The notes below the pieces were generated by a model. It did not search any database and was not told the DNA's origin. It saw only the letters and a list, made by a program, of their open reading frames with translations. A DNA stretch of 62,941 bases, the filler included, from Anaerolineae bacterium (GTDB taxonomy: Bacteria > Chloroflexota > Anaerolineae > Epilineales > Epilineaceae): the NCBI GenBank assembly GCA_029262755.1. It is 5 parts of 5 records of this genome, joined end to end, with 100 filler letters (N's around TTAATTAATTAA, not from the genome) between each part and the next. Parts side by side here need not be neighbours in the genome. Positions count along the whole stretch, not along the records: positions 51,900 to 62,941 come from JAJCYU010000066.1; 4 more parts are not named here. One strand, given 5' to 3'. A program made the position numbers and the translations under genes. This document shows, piece by piece, positions 31,008 to 62,941 of the stretch. Position 1 is the stretch's first letter, and each line of letters begins with the position of its first letter.

Positions 31008-31093
31008 GGCGATCGTGACCGGCCGTCCTATTTCATTCTTGGACTGGGGTTGCAGATAAGGGCCGTCTCCGTCGTGGATCGGCCTCTGATATG

Positions 31094-31262
31094 GCCTTCG
31101 GGGCAGGGTGAGACGCGCGGCCGCGACCGCGATCGTCAATTCCCGACCGGCGGTATGGGGGACACGCCCCCGAGCCCGCGAGCCGCGGGCGGCGTTCGCG
31201 CCGCATCGTGGCAGACCCGGTGAGATGCCGGGGCCGACGGTACAGTCCGGATGGGAGAAGGC
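31094..31262 (+). ncRNA. FMN riboswitch (RFN element)
   Basis: CTTCGGGGCAGGGTGA...ATTCCCGACCGGCGGT...AGCCCGCGAG...GCAGACCCGGTGAGATGCCGGGGCCGACGGTACAGTCCGGATGGGAGAAG; P1 GCCTTC/GAAGGC; directly upstream of rib genes. Confidence 0.96.
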
Positions 31263-31325
31263 ATCGACCGTGCGTGGTCGCCCGTGATCGGCGACCTTTC
31301 GTTCGGCGTTGCACCCATGCCTTGC

Positions 31326-50159: not shown

Positions 50160-51799
50160 GGGACGGCACGCTCCTCCACCGCCGGCTCTACGTTTCCGCT
50201 GGAGCGACCATTGGGCGGCCGGTCCGGACCGATCGAGGGTTCCTGCATTGGCTCCGTCGGCGGCGACGCGCCCAGCCCGAACAACCCCCGTAGCAGGCGC
50301 GCGAAGAAGCCCCTCTCCGGCGGCGGGGGCGCGGTTTCCTCGAGGCCTTCATCGAAGTCCGGCACGTCATCGATGACGAACACGAAGGTTTCCGTGAACG
50401 TCTGCGTCTGGTTGAAGTCGTCCAGGTACTCTACGACGACCTGAACCTCGGCGTCCTCGCTTGGCGCTCGTGGGTTGAGCGTGGCTTCGATCAGGTCGGC
50501 GCCGCCCTGGTCCAAGGCTCCGACGAATCGCGGCACCGACTCGACGTCCATGTAGCGACCACCCACGACGCTTACGTTGCCGATGCTCACCGTCGCCGCG
50601 CCTGCGTTGATCAACTCCACGGCGAAAGGTAAAGAGGCGCCGACCATCGTCTGCGTGACCACCGCATAGGGGTTGATCGCAAGCGAAACCCGCCGGCTCA
50701 CCAGCATGGTCACGATCTCGTTGGACGAGAGCGGCTCGCCGTCGACGTCGTTGTAGCTCAGGCCGATATCGAGCACGTAGACGCCCGGCTTTGCAGCGCC
50801 GTCCACCACCATGCGCTGCGAGACCGTGGTGCTTGCACCCGGTGCCAGATCGTCGATGAACCGCCGGTTGCTCCGGTCGAGCGGGGCGAATACGCCGAGC
50901 GCGGAGCCCGCCGCGCCCGCCCCCGCGCCGGTACCGCCTCCCAGCACCAGCATCATGCTGCGCGCCGCCGCAACGCCCACGTTTGTAATCTCCAACTCCA
51001 AATCGAAGACCTCGCCCGGATGCACCGTTCCACCGGCATCGTAGCGGGCGATCATCGGCAAGGGACCGAAGGCCGCATCGTCCGTGATGCTGAGCCCAAT
51101 GTTGACTCCATCGGTGTAGCGCTCACCCTCCGCGTCGTCGTAGCGCAACTCGAAGCCCTGCTGGGTGGCGCCGGGCGCACCCGGCGCGGCGGCGATCAGG
51201 CGCAGCGTCAGGCTGCCTTCGGCGCCGGGGGGCAAGGTCAACGGAGCCCCTTGTCCGGTGCCTTGGAGCGCGAGCGGTCCCGCGGTGGGTACCAGCAAGA
51301 CCGTGCGAGCATCCTTGCCTCCTACGTTGCGCAGGTTGAACACGGCGGTGAACGGGACGCCGGGCGCTACCCGCCCGGGCACGCGCGAACCAATCACCAC
51401 CACCTGCGGCCGCGTCGCGGTGTTGCCGACGACCTCGACGCCGATCGTGGTCTGCAAGCTGTACTCCTCGCCCTCCGCATCGAGCCACGTCAACGTGATC
51501 GCGATCGGATGGCTGCCCGCCACCGTCGTGGACGCCACCCGCAGACCGCTTTCGAAGTCGCGCTCTTCGCCCGGCTCGATGCGATCGCGATAGATCTCGC
51601 TGCTCCCACGGTCCGGTAGGAAGGCATCCGCCGTCCATTGCATCCGAATATCGAGCGCATCGCTGTCGCCCACATTCTCCACATCGACGTCGAGCTCAAA
51701 GGCTTGACCCGGGGCCGGCCGATCGGGTCGTACGTGCACGCGGTCCAGAACGAGGATCGGCCGGTCCGCATCGAGCTTCGGCGGCGCGGTCGGCGTCGG
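50156..51799 (-). CDS. COG1361-like Ig-fold/S-layer-domain protein (5' truncated)
   Basis: Repeated PG..F.L...[VI].NVG...A units; frame open to the contig edge; GTGA overlap with the permease gene. Confidence 0.75.
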   Translation of the reverse strand, partial: PTPTAPPKLDADRPILVLDRVHVRPDRPAPGQAFELDVDVENVGDSDALDIRMQWTADAFLPDRGSSEIYRDRIEPGEERDFESGLRVASTTVAGSHPIAITLTWLDAEGEEYSLQTTIGVEVVGNTATRPQVVVIGSRVPGRVAPGVPFTAVFNLRNVGGKDARTVLLVPTAGPLALQGTGQGAPLTLPPGAEGSLTLRLIAAAPGAPGATQQGFELRYDDAEGERYTDGVNIGLSITDDAAFGPLPMIARYDAGGTVHPGEVFDLELEITNVGVAAARSMMLVLGGGTGAGAGAAGSALGVFAPLDRSNRRFIDDLAPGASTTVSQRMVVDGAAKPGVYVLDIGLSYNDVDGEPLSSNEIVTMLVSRRVSLAINPYAVVTQTMVGASLPFAVELINAGAATVSIGNVSVVGGRYMDVESVPRFVGALDQGGADLIEATLNPRAPSEDAEVQVVVEYLDDFNQTQTFTETFVFVIDDVPDFDEGLEETAPPPPERGFFARLLRGLFGLGASPPTEPMQEPSIGPDRPPNGRSSGNVEPAVEERAVP

Positions 51800-51899
51800 N
51801 NNNNNNNNNNNNNNNNNNNNNNNNNNNNNNNNNNNNNNNNNNNTTAATTAATTAANNNNNNNNNNNNNNNNNNNNNNNNNNNNNNNNNNNNNNNNNNNN
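51800..51899. other. artificial contig linker
   Basis: N run containing TTAATTAATTAA. Confidence 0.98.
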
Positions 51900-51900
51900 C

Positions 51901-52116
51901 CGCCCGCTCATCCACGAGGCCAAGCAGATGGAGACCGAGCTACGAAGTCCCGCCGCCGGCCTCGTCCGTACGGTCACCGCCACGCCCGGCGCCACGGTCA
52001 ACCAGGGCGACCCGCTCGTGGTGATCGATCCACCGACTGCGGTGGAGGCGGACGGGGACGGCGAAGGCGGGACGGATGCGGACGTGCGAGGCGATGCCGA
52101 CGGGGCCGCCGGATGA
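51901..52116 (+). CDS. biotin/lipoyl attachment domain protein, C-terminal fragment
   Basis: EAxxMETELRSPAAGLV...GATVNQGDPLVVI matches a biotinyl-domain C-terminal half. Confidence 0.75.
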   Translation, partial: RPLIHEAKQMETELRSPAAGLVRTVTATPGATVNQGDPLVVIDPPTAVEADGDGEGGTDADVRGDADGAAG

Positions 52117-52514
52117 GCGCCGGAATATGCTGGGAGATCGTCTTCGATGGCGGCAGCAAGGGCAATCCGGGCCGCGGCTACGGCTCATACCGCCTGCGCG
52201 AAACGGGCGGCGAATGGGAGCCGCCGGTGGAGCTGAACTTCGAGGGCCGACGAACCAACAACGAGGCCGAATACCTCTCGCTCACGGGCGCCTTGCGCGG
52301 CCTCGCGCAGCGCGTCGCCGACCCGAGCGCCGTGGCGATCACGGTCCGCGGCGACAGCAAGCTGGTACTGGAGCAACTGGCCGGCCGCTGGAAGGTCCGC
52401 ACCGCGAGCCTGCGCCCGTACTGGGCGGAGGCCAAGCAAGAGCTCGAGCGCTTCGGCCCGGTAACCTTCGCCTGGCACGGGCGTCAGAACTCGGTGGATC
52501 TGCTGGGGCACTAA
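52113..52514 (+). CDS. ribonuclease HI family protein
   Basis: FDGGSKGNPG, TNNEAEY, RGDSKLV..Q..G.WKV; ATGA overlap. Confidence 0.9.
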   Translation: MSAGICWEIVFDGGSKGNPGRGYGSYRLRETGGEWEPPVELNFEGRRTNNEAEYLSLTGALRGLAQRVADPSAVAITVRGDSKLVLEQLAGRWKVRTASLRPYWAEAKQELERFGPVTFAWHGRQNSVDLLGH

Positions 52515-52594
52515 CGGGGTTGGGGAGATGGTGTTCTTGGAGAGTGGGTCGGCCGCAAAGATTCTGGGTTAGACCGACCTGGCACGAGCCATTC

Positions 52595-52672
52595 GTGCAA
52601 CGCCCGATTACCGCATAAATACGCCGCGATGAAGCGATGTGCAACGGTCGTGCAACGGTAGCACGCTACGCT
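52595..52672 (+). promoter_or_regulatory. putative SARP-activated promoter 1
   Basis: GTGCAACGGT at 52639 and 52650 (11-bp period), GTGCAACG at 52595 (44 bp upstream, in phase); 9-mer followed by 8 nt and TACGCT (52667-52672). Confidence 0.7.
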
Positions 52673-52700
52673 TCGGTCACGAGTTGGCGTTGACGCCGAT

Positions 52701-52858
52701 CCGGGGCCATCCCCAAAGCGGCCTGAGATGCGACAATACGGGGACGGGGTAGGAATTCAATCCGGCGGGCATGACGATGCCCCACGGTTGGGCCGCAATA
52801 CGACGGAAGACCCGCGGGAGCGACGGCCCCGCGACGACAAACGAAGGGGTAGCGAGAA
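52701..52858 (+). ncRNA. conserved structured 5' leader, copy 1 (candidate cis-regulatory RNA)
   Basis: Aligns with 57021-57180; hairpins GGGCAT-GACG-ATGCCC and CGCGGG(A)GC-GACG-GCCCCGCG. Confidence 0.6.
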
Positions 52859-53296
52859 ATGATCAAGCGCATGATGGTTGCGGTTGCGATGGCAGCACTG
52901 GTGTTCGGGGTAGGTGCGGGGTTGGGGTACGGGAGTGCACATGCGGCGGAGAGTTCGGTCGGCACTTATGGAGAATCGATGCAAGAGCGGAATGTGTTGC
53001 AAAATGACCCATGCGTCGATCCTACCGGCCGGCCGATTGCCCCAACCGGGGAAGCGCCTCCCTGCCAGGGGTCGTGGCAACTGTACGTCGCGAAGAGGTT
53101 GAATGGCGAACAGAACTGGCAGTTGGCAGTAGCGAGCGATTTCTGCCCGGAGCCGCCACCGGGCTGGAGCTCGTGTACATGGCAGCCGACTAACGACACG
53201 TTCTGGGTTTTCGATCCGTTTAAGGATTACTGCTGGCACGTTGAGTGGGTATGCTGCAACGGCACTGGCATCCCCGTCTGCGGCTCCGTGAACTGA
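52859..53296 (+). CDS. secreted 8-Cys mini-protein A
   Basis: Signal peptide ending AHA-A; AAGGGG RBS; paralogous to 57181-57648 (GRPI.PTG, AVASDFCP.PP.GW..C, DP.K.YCW..EW.CC). Confidence 0.88.
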   Translation: MIKRMMVAVAMAALVFGVGAGLGYGSAHAAESSVGTYGESMQERNVLQNDPCVDPTGRPIAPTGEAPPCQGSWQLYVAKRLNGEQNWQLAVASDFCPEPPPGWSSCTWQPTNDTFWVFDPFKDYCWHVEWVCCNGTGIPVCGSVN

Positions 53297-53369
53297 TTTC
53301 CGACAGGCTAAGAGGCTCGCTCAGGCATCAGCCGGATTGGTAGGTTAGATTCGTAGGGCTGGATGAAGC

Positions 53370-53408
53370 AGCAGACGCGGTGGCTTTGGCCACCGCGTCT
53401 GCTATTTT
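53370..53408 (+). terminator. perfect 15-bp hairpin between mini-protein A and regulator 1
   Basis: AGCAGACGCGGTGGC-TTTG-GCCACCGCGTCTGCT followed by ATTTT. Confidence 0.75.
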
Positions 53409-53457
53409 CAAGACATTGGAAACTCCTTCAGATCCCCCGAGTTCACCAAACTACTGA

Positions 53458-56400
53458 GTGGAGCGCCTTCTGTTGCAACTCCATGTCTTCGGTCCACTTG
53501 CTGCCGTGTGCAACGGAGCTGAGGTCTCCCTGCCGCTACGCAACCACAGCCGACACCTCTTAGCTCGTCTGGCCATTGACGTAGGAGTTTGGCTGGATCG
53601 CGACATGTTGGCATTGGAGATGTGGCCTAGTCTCGAGCGTTCACTCGGCCGACAGAAGTTGAGGCGTCATCTATTCGATGTCCGGGCCTGGCTAAACAAA
53701 CACTGTGGCGACGGGGTACTGATGGCTCAGCGGGAAAAGGTGAGGCTTGTCACCAATCCGGCACTCCAAATCGATCTCTTTGAGTCTCCGTTGTATGCTG
53801 ACGGAGCCTTGGGAGGGTCTCAGGTCCATGAGTGGCTCCTTGGGACAAACATCACACTATTGGAAGGCATCGACGAATTGTGGGTGCAGCCTCATCGTAC
53901 ACGTATACGTCGGAAGATCGACGAGATTCTTCCGAAGGGAATCGACGACTTGGTTGCCGACGATCGACTTTCTGAAGCCTATTATCTTGCGCAACACTGG
54001 TGCGAATTCGAACCTACAAGCGAGCGCAGATACCGAGTGCTCATGTGGCTCTCGAGTCGACTAGGAGACACTGGTGCCCTCAGGAGATGGTTCGCGAAGT
54101 GCCAGGATGAGCTTGCACGTGAACATGGGATTGCCGTTTCTGCCCGGACCGAGGCGTTTTTCAAGTCCATCGTGCAGGGAGTCGTTCCAGCTTGGGAAAA
54201 CCTTCATTCGGCCGGATTCGAGGCGGAACCACATGGACTAAATCGCGGCTTGCCCTCCTGGAAAGGTGAGCTGTTCGGCCGGCGCGAGACCTTGAACGCC
54301 ATTCAGCAACTCCTATCCCGATCAAACCGAGTCACCATTGTTGGCACGGGCGGGGTAGGCAAGACTGCGTTGGCAACGTGTCTCGCCCAGAACGTAGTTG
54401 ATCGATACAGGGATGGTGTGAACTGGGTCGACCTTGCTGGGATCGATGACCCGAAACTACTAGCCCAGTTTATCGTCGAATCAATCGGGATCGATGCTGT
54501 GCCAGGGAGGGAACCCGTGGTACAACTGCGTTCCTACCTAGCTCAACATCGCGTACTATTTGTGCTCGACAACTGCGAACATCTCCTAGATGCCATCAAG
54601 ACCCTAGTTGAACGGATTTGGGACGGCGATGTATCAGCCGACTTGCTTGCTACAAGCAGAATTCCAATCGGATTTGAATACGAACATGTATGGAATCTGG
54701 AGCCACTGTCTTGCGAAAGCACCACGCCAGGAATCCTTGGGCCTGCGCTCCAGTTGCTTATCGAACGTGTGCGGCAATCACGCAACCCCGACGAGTTTCA
54801 CGACTCAGAGTTGCCGGCAGCATTGCGAGTATCGGAGCTACTCGATGGAATTCCATTGGCGATGGAACTCGCCGCTGCCCGGTGCGAGTTCCTTGACCTA
54901 CATCAGGTTGCTGACATGCTGGCGCAGTATTTCAATGTCCTAGTTGACTCTCGTCGTGACCGAGCGACGCGCCAAAGTACGATGTGGTCCGCCATCGATT
55001 GGAGCTGGCAACTTCTCGAACAACAACATCGGGACTTGCTTACCACAACTGCCGTGTTCCGAGGCGGTTTCGACACGAGGGCGGCCGTGGAGTTAGAGCG
55101 AGCCCGTCAAGAGGGTCGATTGCCCGAGTGGTCGGACTCGCCACCAAGGTCCCGTTCCGAACGTGAGCAGTATCGTGAAGTGGCTGACCAATTGGAATGG
55201 CTGGTACGCAATTCGTTGATCGCCAAGGTAACAGATGCCCGCCAGAGAGTCCGATTTCGGCTTTTGGAGCCCATTCGTCATTTTGCAGAAGCCAAAATGG
55301 TCGCAGAGAAACGCGATCGAGCCGCTTCGATGGGGCATATCGAGTACTTCGCACAGCTAGCAATAGCAGCGCGGGGAGGATTGTCAGGTGAAGAACGACC
55401 GCGCTGGAACGAACTGCTAAAGTTGGAGCACGATAATCTCCGGCACGCCATGGCCGGAATGCGAATCCAAGAAGACGCGCAGCAGCGATTGCAAGTAGGG
55501 ACGAGTTTGTTTCGATATTGGTATGCAAGTGGACACTTTGGGTGGGAACTTGATTGGTTGCGCGCTAGTGTCGCGCAGCGAGAGCCATTTGGCCCGGACG
55601 AAACCGTTGCCGAGGCGCTCCACCTGATAGGGATCTGTCACTATGCCAAAGGAGAGTGCGTTGTCGCGCTAGAGTTCTTCTCGCGGAGCAGCGAACAGTA
55701 CTCTGCACTCCAGGATGATGCATCGATTGTTCGTTCGATGGTCATGTGCGCGTATTGCCACACTCTATTGGGTGAGATCGGGAAAGCGCGCAGCGATGCG
55801 AATCGCGCACTAACGCTTGCAAACGAAGATCCTGCGCTAAGCATACAAGCGCTTGATGCACTTGGGTACATAGACCGAATATCAGGACATTACACGCAGT
55901 CTCGGGAGAGTATGATGCGCGTACTCGACCTCCATCGGGATTCCGATAGCACTCCCGACGAGCAGTATTCAACGATCTCGAACCTCGGGTGGATAGCGTG
56001 GAGTACCGGTGCGCTCGACGAGGCAACGGATTGGCTGCACGAAGCGCGGATGATCGCGGAGACCATCGACAGTAAGCCTATGCGGCTTGAGGCAACGGTC
56101 GCGCAGATCGAAGTCCTAGTCTGCTACGGCCGATTGGAAGAGGCAGCCTTGGCTGCCCGTGAAGGTGTGGAGCTCGCGAAGGATCTCGGTGATGGTTTCG
56201 GCGAGGCGAACGCTCTTACAATGCTCGGGATCATCGAACTCGCGAAAGAACGGTGGCCAACTGCGCGACTCTACCTGCGCCGCGCGGATTCTGGATTCCG
56301 GGCTGTGGAAGCCATTAGCGAACTGGCCACCGTTCTCTGCTATGCGATGGAGCTCACGGATCGCATGGGCGATGAGACCGTTGGGCTCAATGCCAGGACC

Positions 56401-56859
56401 GACGATGATCAGTTGCCTGCGATCGAGCACGACCCCCACGCCCAAGCCATGCTGCACCGCAGCTTCGCATGGCGCGCCTGGACCGCCGGCGATCACGAGA
56501 CCGGCCTCCGGACGATGGTCGAAGCCCTCCGCATGCACGTTGACTTGGGCGAGCGCTTTGAGGCGCTTCGCTGCTTCGAAGCCGTCGGTTCGCTGCTCGC
56601 TCGACTTGGAAGAGGCCGTCTCGCCGAAGGCGCCCTCGCCGCGGCCGCCGCACTTCGCGACGAGATCGGCGCGCGCCCGTGGCCCGTGGACGTGACCGCA
56701 GTCGCCGCTGCGCGCGAGGCGATTCGGGAGGCGGCCATGGAGACGCACGACTTAGACGCCGACGATGAGTTGGAGGCGCTGCCAGTTGGAGCGGAGGACG
56801 TGGTCGCGTGGTTGGAACGGGAGCTCGAGTACGACGGAGCTTCGCCTGCTGAGAACTGA
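53458..56859 (+). CDS. AfsR/SARP-like STAND regulator 1 (wHTH-BTAD-NB-ARC-TPR)
   Basis: LHVFGPL...LDRDMLALEMWP wHTH, BTAD region, GTGGVGKT, VLDNCEH, LDGIPLAMELAA, C-terminal TPR-like helices. Confidence 0.9.
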   Translation: MERLLLQLHVFGPLAAVCNGAEVSLPLRNHSRHLLARLAIDVGVWLDRDMLALEMWPSLERSLGRQKLRRHLFDVRAWLNKHCGDGVLMAQREKVRLVTNPALQIDLFESPLYADGALGGSQVHEWLLGTNITLLEGIDELWVQPHRTRIRRKIDEILPKGIDDLVADDRLSEAYYLAQHWCEFEPTSERRYRVLMWLSSRLGDTGALRRWFAKCQDELAREHGIAVSARTEAFFKSIVQGVVPAWENLHSAGFEAEPHGLNRGLPSWKGELFGRRETLNAIQQLLSRSNRVTIVGTGGVGKTALATCLAQNVVDRYRDGVNWVDLAGIDDPKLLAQFIVESIGIDAVPGREPVVQLRSYLAQHRVLFVLDNCEHLLDAIKTLVERIWDGDVSADLLATSRIPIGFEYEHVWNLEPLSCESTTPGILGPALQLLIERVRQSRNPDEFHDSELPAALRVSELLDGIPLAMELAAARCEFLDLHQVADMLAQYFNVLVDSRRDRATRQSTMWSAIDWSWQLLEQQHRDLLTTTAVFRGGFDTRAAVELERARQEGRLPEWSDSPPRSRSEREQYREVADQLEWLVRNSLIAKVTDARQRVRFRLLEPIRHFAEAKMVAEKRDRAASMGHIEYFAQLAIAARGGLSGEERPRWNELLKLEHDNLRHAMAGMRIQEDAQQRLQVGTSLFRYWYASGHFGWELDWLRASVAQREPFGPDETVAEALHLIGICHYAKGECVVALEFFSRSSEQYSALQDDASIVRSMVMCAYCHTLLGEIGKARSDANRALTLANEDPALSIQALDALGYIDRISGHYTQSRESMMRVLDLHRDSDSTPDEQYSTISNLGWIAWSTGALDEATDWLHEARMIAETIDSKPMRLEATVAQIEVLVCYGRLEEAALAAREGVELAKDLGDGFGEANALTMLGIIELAKERWPTARLYLRRADSGFRAVEAISELATVLCYAMELTDRMGDETVGLNARTDDDQLPAIEHDPHAQAMLHRSFAWRAWTAGDHETGLRTMVEALRMHVDLGERFEALRCFEAVGSLLARLGRGRLAEGALAAAAALRDEIGARPWPVDVTAVAAAREAIREAAMETHDLDADDELEALPVGAEDVVAWLERELEYDGASPAEN

Positions 56860-56958
56860 CACGGAGTGTCCCGCACATGCGATTTCCAGCATTTCTGGAC
56901 CTGCGACCCCACACGCGACACCTAAAGATACGCCATAGAGACCCTGCGCGGGACAAAT

Positions 56959-56981
56959 TTGCAACGCAAGCCGGGTAGGCT
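56959..56981 (+). promoter_or_regulatory. putative SARP-activated promoter 2
   Basis: TTGCAACGC (56959-56967), 8 nt, TAGGCT (56976-56981); same geometry as promoter 1. Confidence 0.6.
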
Positions 56982-57020
56982 TCCTCCAGAAGTGCGCGGC
57001 GGAGAGAGTCGCGATATGGA

Positions 57021-57180
57021 CCGGGGCCATCCCCTGAGCGGCCGAACGGACGACAGAGCAGGGGACTGGGGTAGGGAAATGGACCGGTGGGCGTGACGGC
57101 GCCTCACGGTTGGGCCGCAAGAAATTCGACAGGCAGCGGGCGCGACGGCTCCGCGGCAACGTCAAGGGGTGGTGGTGGAA
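57021..57180 (+). ncRNA. conserved structured 5' leader, copy 2
   Basis: Shares CCGGGGCCATCCCC, GCGGCC, GGGGTAGG, CACGGTTGGGCCGCAA, GCGACGGC and AAGGGGT with copy 1; hairpins GGGCGT-GACG-GCGCCT and GCGGG(C)GC-GACG-GCTCCGC. Confidence 0.6.
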
Positions 57181-57648
57181 ATGAATACGATGAAGATGAT
57201 CGCGACCGGGTTCGCGGTATTGATGTTCGGGGTTGCGCTGGGACTGGGCCAAAGCAGTGTGGCTGCCGCGGAGATTTCGTCGGCCTCGCTGGCGATCCCC
57301 GCTGTCGGCTTCGAAGTTCAGGGCGCCTGCAACAACCCAGAGGGGCGGCCGATCGTTCCGACGGGAGATCCCGAGGACTGCACACCACCACCGGGAGAAG
57401 GATTGTACCGGCTGCACGTGTGGAAGAGCTTGGACAACGGTGCTAGCTGGATGCCGGCGGTCGCGAGCGACTTTTGTCCTTCACCGCCCTCTGGATGGGC
57501 GAACTGCGTAAACTTCGGACCCGGAGGCAGCGGGGTGAACGCACCGATCACGGTGTACGATCCGCTCAAAGAATACTGTTGGTACGCCGAATGGACGTGC
57601 TGCGGTGCGCAGATAGGTAGCCCGTATTGTATGGGGGAGACGACCTAG
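57181..57648 (+). CDS. secreted 8-Cys mini-protein B
   Basis: Signal peptide ending VAA-A; all 8 Cys align with protein A; ATG 57181 aligns with the copy-1 start (GAAATG). Confidence 0.88.
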   Translation: MNTMKMIATGFAVLMFGVALGLGQSSVAAAEISSASLAIPAVGFEVQGACNNPEGRPIVPTGDPEDCTPPPGEGLYRLHVWKSLDNGASWMPAVASDFCPSPPSGWANCVNFGPGGSGVNAPITVYDPLKEYCWYAEWTCCGAQIGSPYCMGETT

Positions 57649-57718
57649 AGCGGTCACGTACTCCACGTTGGAATTGTGGATAGCTAGGAACTACCTGGAC
57701 GCGATTCGGGTGAGCTAG

Positions 57719-57754
57719 AGTAAGGTGCGGTGGCCGTGGCCACCGCACCTTACT
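57719..57754 (+). terminator. perfect 16-bp hairpin between mini-protein B and regulator 2
   Basis: AGTAAGGTGCGGTGGC-CGTG-GCCACCGCACCTTACT; same GCGGTGGC/GCCACCGC core as 53370. Confidence 0.7.
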
Positions 57755-57805
57755 GTTCGTTGTGTCGGGCGCTTCGTGACGGGCGGCCGAAACGAGCCGA
57801 TTGGA

Positions 57806-60800
57806 TTGCGGAGCGAAACACTGGTTCGCCTTCAGGTCTTGGGGCCAATGGCCGTCGTTTATCAGGGAGCGACCGTGGTGCTTCCCAAGCGTCGCGACAG
57901 TCGGGCCCTGTTGGCTGCTCTCGCGATCGAGTCCAACCACTGGTTGGAGCGGCAGACGTTGGCGGCACGACTTTGGCCCGCCGACGAGCCTCGAAGCGCA
58001 CGCAGCAAGCTACGGCGGCACATCTCGGACGTGCGTGCCTGGCTTGCGACGGTGGAGGCGGCAGACCATCTTGAGACCATTCAAGGCCGAGTGCGATTGT
58101 GCGTAGGTCCCGGATTCCGAGTTGACCTCGGGGACGCGCCCCTCGGGTTGGACGGTCCCATTGCGGCCCAAGAAATCGTAGGTTGGCTAAGCGATCACGA
58201 TATTCGACTCCTCCCTGATTTGGAAGGCGCGTGGGTTGAGACGGCGAGGCAGCATTTCGAGCAGCAGCTAGATGCAGTTCTCCCACGGGCCATTGACGAG
58301 TTGGTCGCGCGACAGGACATTGTCAGCGCACTAGCCATCGCCACCCAATGGCACAGGCTAGACAGGACCGCGGAGCAGCGCTACCAGGCACTCATCTGGC
58401 TGACTGCAAGCCTGGGTGACTTTGAAGAGTCAGCACGCTGGTTTGTTCGGGCGAGCGAGGCCCTGGCTAGTTCGCTGGCGCTTGAAGTTTCGCATGCATC
58501 GAAGGATCTCCACAACGCGATCCAACGTGGACTAGAGCCGCCCTGGACCCCGTTGCGTCCGAGGAGTGAGGAGTTCCCAGATCGTGCCAATGGTCCGGGT
58601 CTTCCTGCATTGCAAGGGGAGCTGTTCGGCAGAGAGCAAGACTTGGAGCGAGCGCGATTACGCTTATCACGCGTCGGACGCATGACCGTTGTGGGTACCG
58701 GAGGCGTTGGCAAGACCTCGCTTGCATTGCGCTTGGCACATCGGATGAGCACCCGCTATCCGGATGGCGTGGGGTGGGTAGATCTCTCGGCACTTAGCGA
58801 GCCTCGACTCGTTGCGCAACATGTCCTCGAGTCGTTTGGCCTGGAAACACCGCCCGGCCAGGATGAGCGAGTACGGTTATCCTCGTTCGTCATGCAGCAC
58901 CGCGCGCTGATCGTGCTCGACAATTGCGAGCACTTAGTGGGCCACGTCCAAGAATTGGTGAATTGGGTGTGGGCACCCGGTGCTACGGTTCACTTGCTTG
59001 CCACAAGCAGAATTGCTGTCGGGTATGGCTCTGAGGAAGTATTGAACCTAGAGCCATTGCCTTGGGAGTCTGGAGATGTAGGGCGGATCGGCCCTGCTCA
59101 GGAACTTCTGCTAGCGCGAGTACGCATGGCGCGTGGAGGTAAAGAGGCTGGAAAATCTGAGCGCGCGGCAGCCGCCCGCGTCGCTGAGCGCCTCGAGGGT
59201 ATCCCGCTGGCTCTCGAATTGGCCGCCGCGCGAACGACCTTCACCGGCCTAGATCAGGTCGCGGAGCTGCTCGATCGATACTTCGAGGTGCTCGTAGACC
59301 GACGACGTGATCGTGACGATCGCCAAAGAACCATGTGGTCAGCAATCGACTGGAGTTGGCGCCTACTCGAGGCCGAACAGCAGCGGCTCCTTGCCGTGAC
59401 AGGCGTGTTTCGCGGAAGCTTCGACACATCGGCAGCGGTCGAGATCGCCGGAGCCCTGAGAACGGGGCGCACTCCACGCTGGACGGGCGAGGCGCCGGCC
59501 ATGCGTGAGGAACGCGAAGCGGCGAAGCAGGTTGCGAGTGGCCTGGACACTTTGACCGCACATTCGATGGTCACACGGATCGTTGGGTCCGATGGGGCGT
59601 TGCGCTATCGAGTTCTGGAACCGATCCGAAGATTTGCCGTTGCCCGACTGGAAGAGGCGGGCCAGTTGGAGATCACGACGCGTGGCCATGCTGCGTACTT
59701 CGCAGAGTTGTGCATCGCGGCCCGTGCTGGAATGGCTAGTGAGCAGCGACCTACGTGGCACGCACGACTAGATCTCGAATTGGATAACATTCGCCACGCC
59801 ATGGTGGGCCTGGGTCTCCCAGAAGCACTCGATCGCAGATTGCAAGTAGGAACGAGCTTGTTCCGCTATTGGTACGCTAAAGGACTCTTCCACTGGGAGT
59901 TTGACTGGCTGCGCGAAAGTGTCGTGCTCGCTCAAAGGGTTGCTTCGGTACCTGATGAGACCATTGCTTCCGGGCTTCACATGCTCGGCGCCGTCGAGTA
60001 CGCAAAGGGCCAATTTTCGGAAGCGGTTGAGTTCTTCAATCGCAGCATCGACCAATCCAGAATCCTTGGCGATGATCATGCCCTTTCCAAGAGTCTGGTA
60101 ATGCGCGCCTACTGCCGGACCTTCGTTGGTCAGACAGTCCAGGCGAGAGAGGATGCCGAGGAGGCCGAACGTAGAGCTGGGAAAAACCTCGGCCTACGGA
60201 TTCAGGCTTTGGATGCTCAAGGATTCATCGACCGCAGACAGGGTCGATACGCAAACGCCCGTGCGAGCATGATGCGAGCGCTACAGCTTCATCGGGATTC
60301 AGACAGTCCCCCTGACGAGCAATTCGCCACCATCTCAAATTTGGGATGGACAGCATGGCGCACAGGGGAAATGGACGAGGCATTAGACTGGTTTCGCGAG
60401 GCACGGATGGTGGCCGAGACAGTTGACAGCAACCCGATGCGCATCGAGGCCGCAGCAGGCGAAGCCGAAGCGAATCTTTGCCTTTGTAGGCTCAAAGATG
60501 CGGATGGCCTGGCGCGCGAGGCTTTGGAGTTGTCGCGCGAGGTCGGGGACGTGTTCGGTGAAGCAAATGCCCTCACGGTGCTCGGATTGCTCGAATTCGC
60601 TCAAGAAAACTGGACGAAGGCGCGCGTCTTGTTTCGCCGAGCGGAGGTCGCATATCGAGGAATTGAGGGGGGAGGCGGGTTGGCGACAACCCGTTGCTAT
60701 CGAGCCGAGTTGGCAGATCGTATTGGGGACGTAGCGACTTGGCACTCGGGCGAATTGGACAGGCAGACGTTGGCTGTAGAAATCGACGACCCTCACGCTG

Positions 60801-61195
60801 CTGCCAAGATTCTGCGACGCGACGGCTGGATGTCCCATTTCGCGGGTCATGAGGACGCTGCAGTCCAGAGATTGATCGAAAGCCTCCGCATGCACATCGA
60901 CCTCGGCGAACGCTTCGAGACCGCCCGCTGTTTCGAAGCGGTCGGCCGGCTGCTTGCGCGCAGCGCACGTCCCCGCCTTGCCGCAGGCGCCCTGGACGCC
61001 GGCGCGGCCTTGCGCGACGAGATCGGTGCTCGACCGTGGCCCGCGGACGTGTCCGCCGTTGCAGAGGCGCGCGAAACGATTGACAGCCTATTGTCCGACG
61101 ACGCCGGAAGTCGTCTCGACGACGCGTCGTCGCCGGCTCCGGTCGGCGCAGAGGCCGTAGTGGCATGGCTCGAAACGGCGTCGGCGCGATCTTGA
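57806..61195 (+). CDS. AfsR/SARP-like STAND regulator 2 (wHTH-BTAD-NB-ARC-TPR)
   Basis: Full-length paralogue of regulator 1: LQVLGPM, GTGGVGKT, VLDNCEH, LEGIPLALELAA, RLQVGTSLFRYWYA; start uncertain (TTG 57806 assumed). Confidence 0.9.
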   Translation: MRSETLVRLQVLGPMAVVYQGATVVLPKRRDSRALLAALAIESNHWLERQTLAARLWPADEPRSARSKLRRHISDVRAWLATVEAADHLETIQGRVRLCVGPGFRVDLGDAPLGLDGPIAAQEIVGWLSDHDIRLLPDLEGAWVETARQHFEQQLDAVLPRAIDELVARQDIVSALAIATQWHRLDRTAEQRYQALIWLTASLGDFEESARWFVRASEALASSLALEVSHASKDLHNAIQRGLEPPWTPLRPRSEEFPDRANGPGLPALQGELFGREQDLERARLRLSRVGRMTVVGTGGVGKTSLALRLAHRMSTRYPDGVGWVDLSALSEPRLVAQHVLESFGLETPPGQDERVRLSSFVMQHRALIVLDNCEHLVGHVQELVNWVWAPGATVHLLATSRIAVGYGSEEVLNLEPLPWESGDVGRIGPAQELLLARVRMARGGKEAGKSERAAAARVAERLEGIPLALELAAARTTFTGLDQVAELLDRYFEVLVDRRRDRDDRQRTMWSAIDWSWRLLEAEQQRLLAVTGVFRGSFDTSAAVEIAGALRTGRTPRWTGEAPAMREEREAAKQVASGLDTLTAHSMVTRIVGSDGALRYRVLEPIRRFAVARLEEAGQLEITTRGHAAYFAELCIAARAGMASEQRPTWHARLDLELDNIRHAMVGLGLPEALDRRLQVGTSLFRYWYAKGLFHWEFDWLRESVVLAQRVASVPDETIASGLHMLGAVEYAKGQFSEAVEFFNRSIDQSRILGDDHALSKSLVMRAYCRTFVGQTVQAREDAEEAERRAGKNLGLRIQALDAQGFIDRRQGRYANARASMMRALQLHRDSDSPPDEQFATISNLGWTAWRTGEMDEALDWFREARMVAETVDSNPMRIEAAAGEAEANLCLCRLKDADGLAREALELSREVGDVFGEANALTVLGLLEFAQENWTKARVLFRRAEVAYRGIEGGGGLATTRCYRAELADRIGDVATWHSGELDRQTLAVEIDDPHAAAKILRRDGWMSHFAGHEDAAVQRLIESLRMHIDLGERFETARCFEAVGRLLARSARPRLAAGALDAGAALRDEIGARPWPADVSAVAEARETIDSLLSDDAGSRLDDASSPAPVGAEAVVAWLETASARS

Positions 61196-61199
61196 AGGC

Positions 61200-61343
61200 C
61201 TGACCTTTTTGCTTTCCCCTCGACGTGACGGCGGACCCCTCCAGCGCTGTGTGCGCCTCAGGGGCCCGCCCGTCTTTCACTCCAAATCCAAATCAAAGCT
61301 TCAAGCCGCGTTCGTCTGTGTTGCCTCCCGCTCCCGTTTCCAT
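61200..61343 (-). ncRNA. candidate small RNA or leaderless 16-aa peptide transcript
   Basis: Downstream of promoter 3; hairpin 61227-61274 has G-U pairs on the minus strand but A-C mismatches on the plus strand; ATG at 61343 opens METGAGGNTDERGLKL. Confidence 0.4.
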
Positions 61344-61349
61344 GATTGG

Positions 61350-61383
61350 ATACTACGGCCCCACCGTTGCAAGAGCGTCGCAT
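61350..61383 (-). promoter_or_regulatory. putative SARP-activated promoter 3 (divergent from regulator 3)
   Basis: Minus strand: ATGCGACGC (61383-61375), TTGCAACGG (61372-61364, 11-bp period), 8 nt, TAGTAT (61355-61350). Confidence 0.65.
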
Positions 61384-61498
61384 CGCGGAACTGCGGCGCT
61401 CCCGTAGAGCGCGGGACGACGATTCGAACCCTGCTACCATCCTCGAATCGATCCTCGTCGGTTTGTGCCCGGCGGGGAAGCTTTCGCACGGAGACTGG

Positions 61499-62941
61499 AT
61501 GGCCAAGTACCCAGGAGCAGGATCGGGAGAAAGTTCGGGCGATGGAGCGGACAAGGCTCCAATTCGCATCCAAGTCCTCGGACCGTTCCAGGTCTACGTC
61601 GGCGACGAGGCGTTGCCGCCGCCGCGCCGATCGCAAACACTGCGCGTGCTTGCCTACTTGCTGCTCCACCCGGAGAAGCCGCTCGAACGGGCTGCGTTGG
61701 CGGAGACGTTGTGGCCCGACGAAGATGGCGCCAAGGCGCGCTTCAACCTTCGTCACGCGATCCATGCCATCAAGGGCTATCTGCCCAAATCGGACGACGG
61801 CGACGAATGGATCGAGTCCGATCGCCAGACGGTGCGCTGGACGCCGGATGATCGCGTGCGGCTCGATATCGACCAGCTCGCGCACGGGCGCGAGATCGCG
61901 GAGGGCGATACGCCGGCGGTAGCCCTTGTAGAGCCCTTGCAGCAAGCAGCGGATGGCTACGGCGGCCCCTTCTTGCCGGCGATCGAGGACGACTGGGCGC
62001 GAAACGTGCGTGCCAGGGCGGCGGAGGACCTCACGATCGTGCTGGAGCGCCTGCTGCGGTTGCACGAGCGAGATGGCCGAACCGACGCCGCGGTGGAAGT
62101 GGGACGGCGATTGCTTGCGCACGATGGCACCCGCGAGACCGCGTACCGGGCGATGATGCGCGTGCATGCCGGGCGTGGCGACCGGGCGGCGGCGCTGCGG
62201 CTCTATCAGGCTTGCGTGGAGCTGCTGCGCGATGAGATGGGCGTGGAGCCCTCCGAGGAAACGGAGGCGCTCGCGGAGTCCATACGGCAAGGCGACGAGG
62301 TGGCGCACGTCGACGAGGCGGCCACGGGCAGTGCAACGACCGCCGGAACAGGGACTCACGCTATCGCACCGCCGTCATGGCCTTGGCCGCTGATCGACCA
62401 GATGGGCCGACGTCAGGCGTTGGCCGCGTGTATCGCGCGATCGCGCCTCGTGACGGTCACGGGGCCCGCGGGCGTCGGCAAGAGCCGGCTCGCCGCGGCC
62501 GTCGCGACCGACGCTGCGGGGATGGACGATCCCGAAGGGCAGGTAGTCTGGTGCGATCTTGAATTCGAGTTTCCCGACGGAGGCAACGTGCTTGCAGCCA
62601 TCGCGACAGCCGCGGGCCTACCTGCGGACGCCGGTGATCCTGTTCGCGTTCTGGCGTCGGTCGTAGAGGACGACCCCTGGTTGATCGTCCTCGACGACGC
62701 CGATGCCGTGCTCGACGAGATCGTACCGGCGTGGAACGCGCTCTCGCGCGCCATGCCTGCGTTGCGCGTTGTGATCACCAGCCGCGAGGCGTTGCGGATT
62801 CAGGACGAAGAGGTCTTCCACGTTGCGCGACTCGATGAACGGGATGGCGATGCACCACCGCTCGCACGCGGGCCCGAATTGGAGAGCGCCTCGCTGCTGG
62901 ATGCCGTGGTACGGGAGTTGGCGCCGGCCAAGATGCCGACG
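61499..62941 (+). CDS. AfsR/SARP-like STAND regulator 3 (3' truncated; absent from ORF track)
   Basis: GGAGA RBS, ATG 61499; hand translation gives IRIQVLGPF, RVLAYLLLHPEKPLERAALAETLWPD, RETAYRAMMR, GPAGVGKS, LIVLDDAD, VITSRE; open to window end. Confidence 0.9.
   Translation, partial: MAKYPGAGSGESSGDGADKAPIRIQVLGPFQVYVGDEALPPPRRSQTLRVLAYLLLHPEKPLERAALAETLWPDEDGAKARFNLRHAIHAIKGYLPKSDDGDEWIESDRQTVRWTPDDRVRLDIDQLAHGREIAEGDTPAVALVEPLQQAADGYGGPFLPAIEDDWARNVRARAAEDLTIVLERLLRLHERDGRTDAAVEVGRRLLAHDGTRETAYRAMMRVHAGRGDRAAALRLYQACVELLRDEMGVEPSEETEALAESIRQGDEVAHVDEAATGSATTAGTGTHAIAPPSWPWPLIDQMGRRQALAACIARSRLVTVTGPAGVGKSRLAAAVATDAAGMDDPEGQVVWCDLEFEFPDGGNVLAAIATAAGLPADAGDPVRVLASVVEDDPWLIVLDDADAVLDEIVPAWNALSRAMPALRVVITSREALRIQDEEVFHVARLDERDGDAPPLARGPELESASLLDAVVRELAPAKMPT

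Follow-up and report, generated by a model that had tools for sequence, protein, structure and literature searches.

Tandem cassettes of a cysteine-rich secreted-protein gene and an AfsR-like regulator gene, and a shared promoter box, in an Anaerolineae genome

Organization of the tandem cassettes

The last part of the DNA analysed here, a stretch of 62,941 nt that we call the window, carries two tandem cassettes, each of which pairs a gene for a small, putatively secreted protein with eight cysteines (the mini-protein) with a gene for a large regulator resembling AfsR. The cassettes lie within positions 51900-62941, which are the entire contig C66 (11,042 nt) of Anaerolineae bacterium GCA_029262755.1, a 5.06-Mb metagenome-assembled genome of 428 contigs that is 84% complete. 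Both copies show the same order of elements, namely a promoter box, a conserved leader, a Sec-exported 8-Cys protein, a perfect hairpin and a regulator with SARP, NB-ARC and TPR modules. An initial annotation of this DNA had described such a five-part unit occurring twice in the same order, and we found every listed element in both cassettes.

All features of the two cassettes are on the plus strand. Cassette 1 carries the putative activator box TGCAACG-gtcg-TGCAACG (52640..52657), whose heptamers start at 52640 and 52651 with an 11-nt period, followed by the -10-like hexamer TACGCT (52667..52672), 9 nt past the proximal heptamer. The conserved leader core (52699..52836), a candidate structured 5' untranslated region, precedes the gene for mini-protein 1 (P0001; 52859..53296), an orphan of 145 aa with a Sec-type signal peptide and 8 Cys. 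A perfect 15-bp stem-loop followed by ATTTTC (53370..53403), a possible terminator or attenuator, separates it from regulator 1 (P0003; 53458..56859), a protein of 1133 aa with a winged helix-turn-helix (wHTH)-BTAD (SARP) region, NB-ARC and TPR. An extra TGCAACG heptamer lies at 52596..52602 (+), 44 nt (4 x 11) upstream of the next heptamer and in helical phase with it, and may be an additional in-phase activator site. The initial annotation was right that a TGCAACG box with a -10 element is present; alignment of the upstream regions places the cassette 1 counterpart of the cassette 2 box at 52651, not at 52596.

Cassette 2 carries the box CGGGACA-aatt-TGCAACG (56949..56966), the -10-like hexamer TAGGCT (56976..56981) and its leader core (57019..57158). 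Mini-protein 2 (57181..57648; about 155 aa, signal peptide, 8 Cys) may start at ATG 57181 or 57190, and its database form P0006 has 152 aa. The stem-loop that follows (57719..57754) is a perfect 16-bp stem with a weak U tract. Regulator 2 (P0004; 57806..61195) has an open frame that begins at 57725, within this hairpin; we infer that its start is TTG 57806, which best fits the N-terminus of regulator 1. The annotation had also noted a third, more divergent regulator at 61499, and this was borne out: regulator 3 (within P0005; 61499..62941, +; ATG 61499) is a SARP protein with a STAND NTPase, 26% identical to regulator 2 and truncated by the contig end.

The single public sequencing run with this DNA is a biofilm metagenome, which may be the source sample. 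Its unitigs span 52135-53729, 53713-57372 and 60523-62828 with at most one mismatch; since they bridge the cassettes, the tandem layout is not an assembly artefact.

The copies are well diverged with all five elements retained, as the annotation had put it. Mini-proteins 1 and 2 share 41% identity (E 6e-34), with seven of the cysteines aligned and one shifted, and regulators 1 and 2 share 49% identity across 1118 residues. In global DNA alignment, the cassettes are 53% identical overall and the coding parts 44-60%, including 58% for the TPR region, 44% for BTAD and 50% for the mature mini-protein. The best-kept stretch is the leader core at 68%, against 29-39% for the other non-coding parts, which argues that the leader is under constraint.

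The large regulators are clearly related to AfsR. With Pfam, the DNA-binding region gave matches near threshold, with BTAD scoring 20.1 against a cut-off of 22.1 on P0003 and Trans_reg_C 25.4 against 26.2 on P0004. NB-ARC scored 34 bits (cut-off 23.5) in regulators 1 and 2, with the P-loop GTGGVGKT present, and TPR_12 and TPR_MalT exceeded their cut-offs. Regulator 3 has Trans_reg_C, BTAD at 75 bits and a STAND NTPase. A six-sequence profile of the regulators and their relatives matches AfsR (PDB 8k60) with an E-value of 6e-49 over the SARP and NOD regions (AfsR residues 25-622), and a second aligned stretch (730-979) covers the TPR, in line with the earlier description of these proteins as AfsR-type STAND activators. 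The same profile matches EmbR at 7e-16. The recognition helix KLRRH[LI]xDVRAWL is common to regulators 1 and 2. Against the AfsR equivalog model NF053617 of NCBIfam, the regulators scored 29-72 bits, far below the cut-off of 1430. By domain content, with all three modules present, they can be assigned to the architectural class of large SARPs, and they do not appear to be AfsR orthologues.

We saw no membrane or export signal in the regulators when reading them by eye, and found no close relatives of them in the metagenome contigs searched. PADLOC 2.0, which covers anti-phage STAND proteins, Avs and others, returned only a generic TPR model (22-31 bits). We count 12 SARP-domain loci in this genome. 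STAND proteins are strongly expanded in this lineage, with at least 12 matches per genome in many relatives. In many family genomes a large AfsR-like gene (~1150 aa) adjoins a medium SARP-NTPase gene (~550-825 aa, like regulator 3). This side-by-side arrangement occurs on our contig C66 and, in relatives, at G005:C5, G012:C58, G003:C47, G003:C174, G013:C4, G007:C28, G015:C1 and G002:C149, which suggests a conserved two-regulator locus.

The mini-proteins have no known family. A two-sequence profile run against a 5.8-billion cluster set and 1.84-billion representatives recovered only the two copies as credible matches, and nothing credible was found in JGI metagenome contigs, GTDB genome contigs or 60 relatives, where all matches had E-values above 1e-3. 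Two candidates were discarded: P0007 (E 3.6e-4 in the 1.84-billion set) is a repeat protein matching spuriously on 'TGDPED', and one GTDB-contig locus matched over 21 residues. The ESM Atlas does not contain the mini-protein sequences. An AlphaFold2 model from the two-row alignment, with beta strands only and a pLDDT of 43.5, is unreliable. The mature proteins have ~115-130 aa and 8 Cys, and we describe them as predicted exported, disulfide-rich proteins that are lineage-specific and fast-evolving.

The leader and the hairpins were analysed as RNA. Against Rfam 15, nothing reached the gathering score; two chance-level matches (E >5) fell elsewhere than on the leader. BLAST of the leader against its own genome yielded the two copies only, as did a covariance model built from them, which gave one match in 100 relatives (E 0.035). 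RNAalifold proposes five helices in which 8/8 varying pairs stay paired, two of them by double change; this pairing was equalled by 117 of 500 shuffles and is not significant, the structure being derived from the same two sequences. The minimum free energy is no better than that of shuffles (z +0.6 and -0.1). The idea that the leader is an upstream open reading frame (ORF) was rejected, since the two copies differ at first codon positions and the frame, read onward, enters the mini-protein gene out of frame. Our leading guess for this constrained element is a cis-regulatory RNA.

The hairpins, by comparison, fold far better than chance. That of cassette 1 reaches -35.7 kcal/mol (z -9.1) and that of cassette 2 a z of -5.6, and in both cases 0 of 200 shuffles folded as well. 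With respect to terminator features, all stems are very stable; ATTTTC follows the stem in cassette 1, while U tracts are weak or absent in cassette 2 and in a related unit on contig C253 described below.

A promoter box shared with genes for exported proteins

The promoter box consists of two heptamers at an 11-nt period, nGsGACG-N4-TGCAACG, followed by N9 and TAnnCT; a -35 hexamer is absent. In both cassettes TAsGCT stands 9 nt past the proximal heptamer. By itself, TGCAACG shows no enrichment in the window (16 occurrences, 10.3 expected). The full arrangement is enriched: a search of the 5.06-Mb genome for TGCAACG-N9-TANNCT gives 14 sites and its reversed control one, and the spacer is strict, with 14 sites at N9, none at N8 and two at N10. 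The wider pattern TGCAACG-N9-TANNNT gives 19 sites, in which the distal heptamer, 4 nt upstream, is recognizable by A (18/19), C (16/19) and G (15/19) at fixed positions. The 11-nt period, one of the two (11 or 22 bp) that SARP-dependent promoters have, holds in 17-18 of these 19 sites and in all 18 sites fetched from relatives.

This geometry was compared with known promoter classes. According to PMC10936776, SARP targets carry direct repeats with an 11-bp period, the 3' one lying ~8 bp away from the -10, and the afs box of the afsS promoter is at -40 to -19. The spacer in our sites is 8 nt when the repeat is counted as TGCAACGS and 9 nt when it is counted as a heptamer. Judged from the aligned sites, the geometry of the putative box is that of SARP-dependent promoters. 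Site alignment also excluded two other classes: a sigma-54 promoter, for which the GG-to-GC spacing is one nt short and the GG is not the conserved part of the distal heptamer, and an extracytoplasmic-function type -35/-10 promoter, for which neither a 10-nt nor a 20-nt spacer is suitable.

The box precedes ORFs at 17 of the 19 sites. One site, on contig C115, is probably there by chance; it lies inside a gene that looks ThiG-like by eye and is without a distal heptamer. By a crude hydrophobic score, a signal-like N-terminus is present in 10 of the 17 box-driven ORFs; the background rate is 16% among 4005 ORFs (binomial p 7e-5). Pfam identified LVIVD/beta-propeller plus VWA, Reg_prop propeller, CarboxypepD_reg-like and SPFH proteins among the products, and several others are Cys-rich orphans. 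As the genes behind the box encode mostly exported or surface proteins, the cassettes would be members of a regulon.

The box is conserved in related genera. In 16 other family genomes, the exact pattern gave 22 matches against 8 in controls; the distal heptamer is present in 18 of the 18 sites fetched from these matches, with AC in 17, and on visual inspection no fewer than 11 of the 18 lie before genes for proteins with a signal peptide. At G001:C14, the box lies directly before a 648-aa SARP gene.

Other leaders of the predicted regulon have no element in common with the cassette leader. The leader of a box-driven LVIVD/VWA gene (G000:C232) contains GGTTGGGCC and ATGACGAT, both of which are also present in the cassette 1 leader in reversed order; this may be chance. 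Another box-driven gene (L057; G000:C143:540-1427) encodes a secreted protein of 296 aa with two ~120-aa domains, each having 10 Cys and ending in CC-x-C, and no Pfam match. Its Cys pattern is resembled by that of a 174-aa protein from G001:C83, a unit described below, with no BLAST similarity between the two.

Another of the 19 sites is a full box, TGCGACG-ctct-TGCAACG-N9-TAGTAT, on the minus strand at 61350..61382, between the regulator 2 stop and the regulator 3 start and facing the 3' end of regulator 2. Transcription from it would give a short antisense RNA against the regulator 2 3' flank, entering a stem-loop at 61226..61273 (+). A 16-codon ORF begins nearly at its predicted transcription start.

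Upstream of cassette 1, the true gene is RNase H-like (RVT_3; 51900-52514) and ends at 52514; an ORF at 52076-52618 was rejected as an artefact of the wrong frame. G+C is 0.54-0.61 over cassette 1 (52500-56000) and 0.66-0.70 in the 2 kb before it, a stretch interrupted by a brief dip to 0.55 at 51500-52000. Elsewhere in the window, contig C63 carries an FMN riboswitch at 31090-31266 (+), scoring 84.9 bits against a gathering score of 66.2.

Linkage of the box to AfsR-like genes and its interpretation

The arrangement recurs outside the two cassettes. On contig C253 of the same genome, a third unit has the box TGCAACGgtagacgccTAGACT and a short leader ahead of the gene for a 159-aa secreted protein with 8 Cys; a 14-bp hairpin and a regulator of 1143 aa that is 31% identical to regulator 1 follow. 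The sole in-frame start of this regulator, a GTG (L034 6839), falls within the 3' arm of the hairpin downstream of the mini-protein gene, a position that would imply co-transcription with the mini-protein gene and occluded translation initiation. In four related genomes, a box, a signal-peptide ORF and an AfsR-like gene lie on the same strand (G015:C1, G001:C83, G016:C85 and G003:C47); the unit at G015:C1 has the variant heptamers TGTAACG/CGAAACG and a long hairpin. A convergent version is found at G005:C5. Within our genome, the two contigs C66 and C253 hold 4 of the 19 box sites together with 4 of the 12 SARP-domain loci.

The secreted partner is not the same protein from unit to unit. The C253 partner, P0008, was also an orphan in our search and has no detectable relation to P0001 or P0002 (hhalign probability 2%). 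BLAST found no similarity among the partners at related modules or the other box-driven Cys-rich proteins, and the partners at some related modules have few Cys. The upstream partner differs in sequence between modules, and its fold probably differs as well.

Taken together, we see about an even chance that a regulon of exported proteins is driven by AfsR-like activators, with the cassettes as autoregulated members. Each cassette would be a transcription unit dependent on an activator of the SARP kind, with an OmpR-type winged helix and BTAD. Its transcript would comprise a ~185-nt leader and the coding sequence of a small, disulfide-rich protein exported via Sec and with a presumed extracellular role, after which the very stable stem-loop would stop or attenuate transcription. 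The AfsR-like gene behind the hairpin would probably be expressed at a low level through read-through, which would make the autoregulation positive. Such read-through is suggested by the C253 regulator, whose start lies inside the 3' arm of its hairpin. The cassettes would in this way be both members and candidate drivers of a single exported-protein regulon, switched on when the NB-ARC/TPR part of at least one AfsR-like paralogue meets an activating signal. The view of the initial annotation that the regulator drives the exported protein is plausible in light of the SARP-like promoter geometry and the recurring pairing; the idea that this control is private to each pair found no support.

Several observations weigh against this interpretation. 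No public RNA run is listed as containing this DNA. For 15 of the 19 sites the contig has no SARP gene, and a box is missing from the contigs of 8 of the 12 SARP loci, although both counts carry little weight because the contigs are short. At the eight other SARP loci of this genome we saw no secreted-protein partner of this kind. Among 20 further regulator upstream regions in relatives, screened with a relaxed signal-peptide filter, only two have a box and a signal-peptide ORF; by this crude filter, one of the remaining 18 has a lipoprotein-like ORF without a box and 17 have neither. Three more regions, L036-L038, were screened with a Cys filter only. The pairing of box, secreted protein and regulator recurs but is not general. 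At the protein level, the F/Y-HD latch, described in bioRxiv 10.64898/2026.09.02.748808 as conserved in 3853 actinomycete AfsR-like proteins, is missing, with RYRFHDLVRLYA in AfsR against RYRLLEPIRAFA here, which reads LLE. At the positions aligned with T88/R92, which contact bases in AfsR, regulators 1 and 2 have R/D, the C253 regulator has N/M and regulator 3 has H/A, and all three mini-protein gene promoters have TGCAACG despite these differences. Moreover, no homologue of the regulator 1 wHTH exceeds 36% identity in the 16 family genomes, though the box is conserved across genera.

These last points are the reason for retaining a different explanation, in which the box is read by another conserved winged-helix factor of the OmpR/PhoB kind, for example a response regulator or one master SARP encoded at another locus, and the AfsR-like genes are co-regulated read-through cargo. 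We regard it as somewhat unlikely. It would account for a box that is kept across genera while the DNA-reading helices of the adjacent regulators are not, for the distance of most boxes from any SARP gene, and for the SARP gene at G001:C14 that is itself box-driven. The pho box also has a similar layout, 7+4+7 near the -10, and as the repeats used by PhoB-type response regulators are arranged in almost the same way, SARPs are not identified by geometry alone. On the other hand, boxes and SARP-STAND genes are linked repeatedly, in five genomes, the layout closely fits the SARP rule, and we found no candidate for such a factor.

Other explanations assign the exported proteins a more specific role. 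The units could be conflict modules in which the Cys-rich proteins are antimicrobial or anti-competitor effectors and the STAND-TPR proteins, in the manner of NLRs, sense a cue from an invader or competitor and switch on the effectors together with the surface-protein regulon. The orphan, fast-diverging, disulfide-rich nature of the mini-proteins, the STAND expansion in relatives and the biofilm origin of the metagenome all fit this proposal, which we nevertheless judge improbable: PADLOC gave nothing beyond the generic TPR match, toxin, immunity and lysis genes were not seen in the contig, and other members of the regulon resemble structural or surface proteins.

The initial annotation had proposed a self-contained sense-and-secrete circuit, possibly of cognate pairs. 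In this model, the TPR region of each regulator would sense its own 8-Cys protein, whole or in part, as in peptide/TPR quorum sensing. In its favour, pairing and gene order have survived a diverged duplication and recur at a third locus, and both partners diverge fast. The circuit is not self-contained, however, as the same box precedes ORFs at 17 sites in this genome and is conserved in related genera, so that the promoter is common to a regulon. The cognate-pair idea fares no better. Each partner is a folded protein of ~115 aa that is exported, and by eye the regulators are without export or membrane signals; no importer gene was seen by eye on the contig; partners at related modules show no detectable similarity and some have few Cys; and the TPR-encoding DNA (58% identical) is better kept than that of BTAD (44%) or the mature mini-protein (50%), rather than being the most diverged part. 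We therefore consider private signalling very improbable. We give equally little credence to an extended version, in which the 8-Cys proteins are cognate signals or decoys for their own STAND-TPR regulators, the cassettes are diverged private channels feeding a shared regulon, and the 140-nt leader is a new cis-regulatory RNA gating signal synthesis.

Relation to known regulatory systems

To our knowledge, AfsR-type regulators have been studied almost only as actinomycete antibiotic switches. If AfsR-like activators do drive the regulon, the strictly spaced box predicts ~17 target genes, most of which encode exported proteins, for regulators of this type outside Actinomycetota. With three regulator genes directly behind box-driven genes, it becomes testable which paralogue reads the box and whether many STAND sensors converge on one promoter class. 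In addition, no database accounts for three of the products, which are orphan exported proteins rich in disulfides, or for one leader that is a candidate for a structured RNA.

With RRNPP systems, the cassettes have in common a TPR-containing cytoplasmic regulator encoded beside the gene for a secreted product. RRNPP signals, however, are short processed peptides that are re-imported, whereas the product here is a disulfide-rich protein of ~115 aa, and no transporter ORF was seen by eye in the 11-kb contig. Class II activation by PhoB at the pho box likewise involves 7-bp direct repeats with 4-bp spacers that replace the -35 at a fixed distance upstream of the -10. In our case the genes that adjoin the boxes are SARP-STAND genes and not response regulator or kinase genes.

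Judged from the literature listings searched, no paper describes SARP-type regulators in Chloroflexota, or such regulators paired with secreted Cys-rich proteins, which does not prove that none exists. A survey of Actinomycetota AfsR-like proteins (bioRxiv 10.64898/2026.09.02.748808) describes these paralogues as largely uncharacterised; as here, there are many per genome, with most regulatory targets unassigned. That survey covers Actinomycetota only and finds the HD motif conserved; our regulators come from another phylum and lack HD, and for them a target box can be predicted.

At the promoter level, SARP targets in general (ActII-ORF4, DnrI and others) likewise have heptamer-type direct repeats 11 bp apart, of which the 3' one is ~8 bp from the -10, according to PMC10936776. 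Our box differs in that its two repeats are unlike (nGsGACG and TGCAACG), with a spacing of 9 nt counted as a heptamer, and in that ~19 sites are spread genome-wide and not confined to one gene cluster.

The initial annotation did not recognise the arrangement as a described system. We likewise found no description of this exact pairing, but it is not wholly new, since AfsR and its adjacent small target afsS in Streptomyces coelicolor (PDB 8k60, 8jke; PMC10936776) are the closest case. Both systems have the same architecture of SARP, NOD/NB-ARC and TPR, with profile homology over all modules, and in both the activator gene adjoins a small target gene. PMC10936776 describes a target promoter with two 11-bp direct repeats that overlap and replace the -35 near the -10, as at our cassettes. 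The differences lie in the target and its setting: here the small gene is upstream of the regulator gene and encodes a predicted exported 8-Cys protein. AfsS, by contrast, is cytoplasmic. The predicted regulon, too, consists of exported proteins instead of antibiotic clusters, and the host belongs to Chloroflexota where that of AfsR-AfsS belongs to Actinomycetota.

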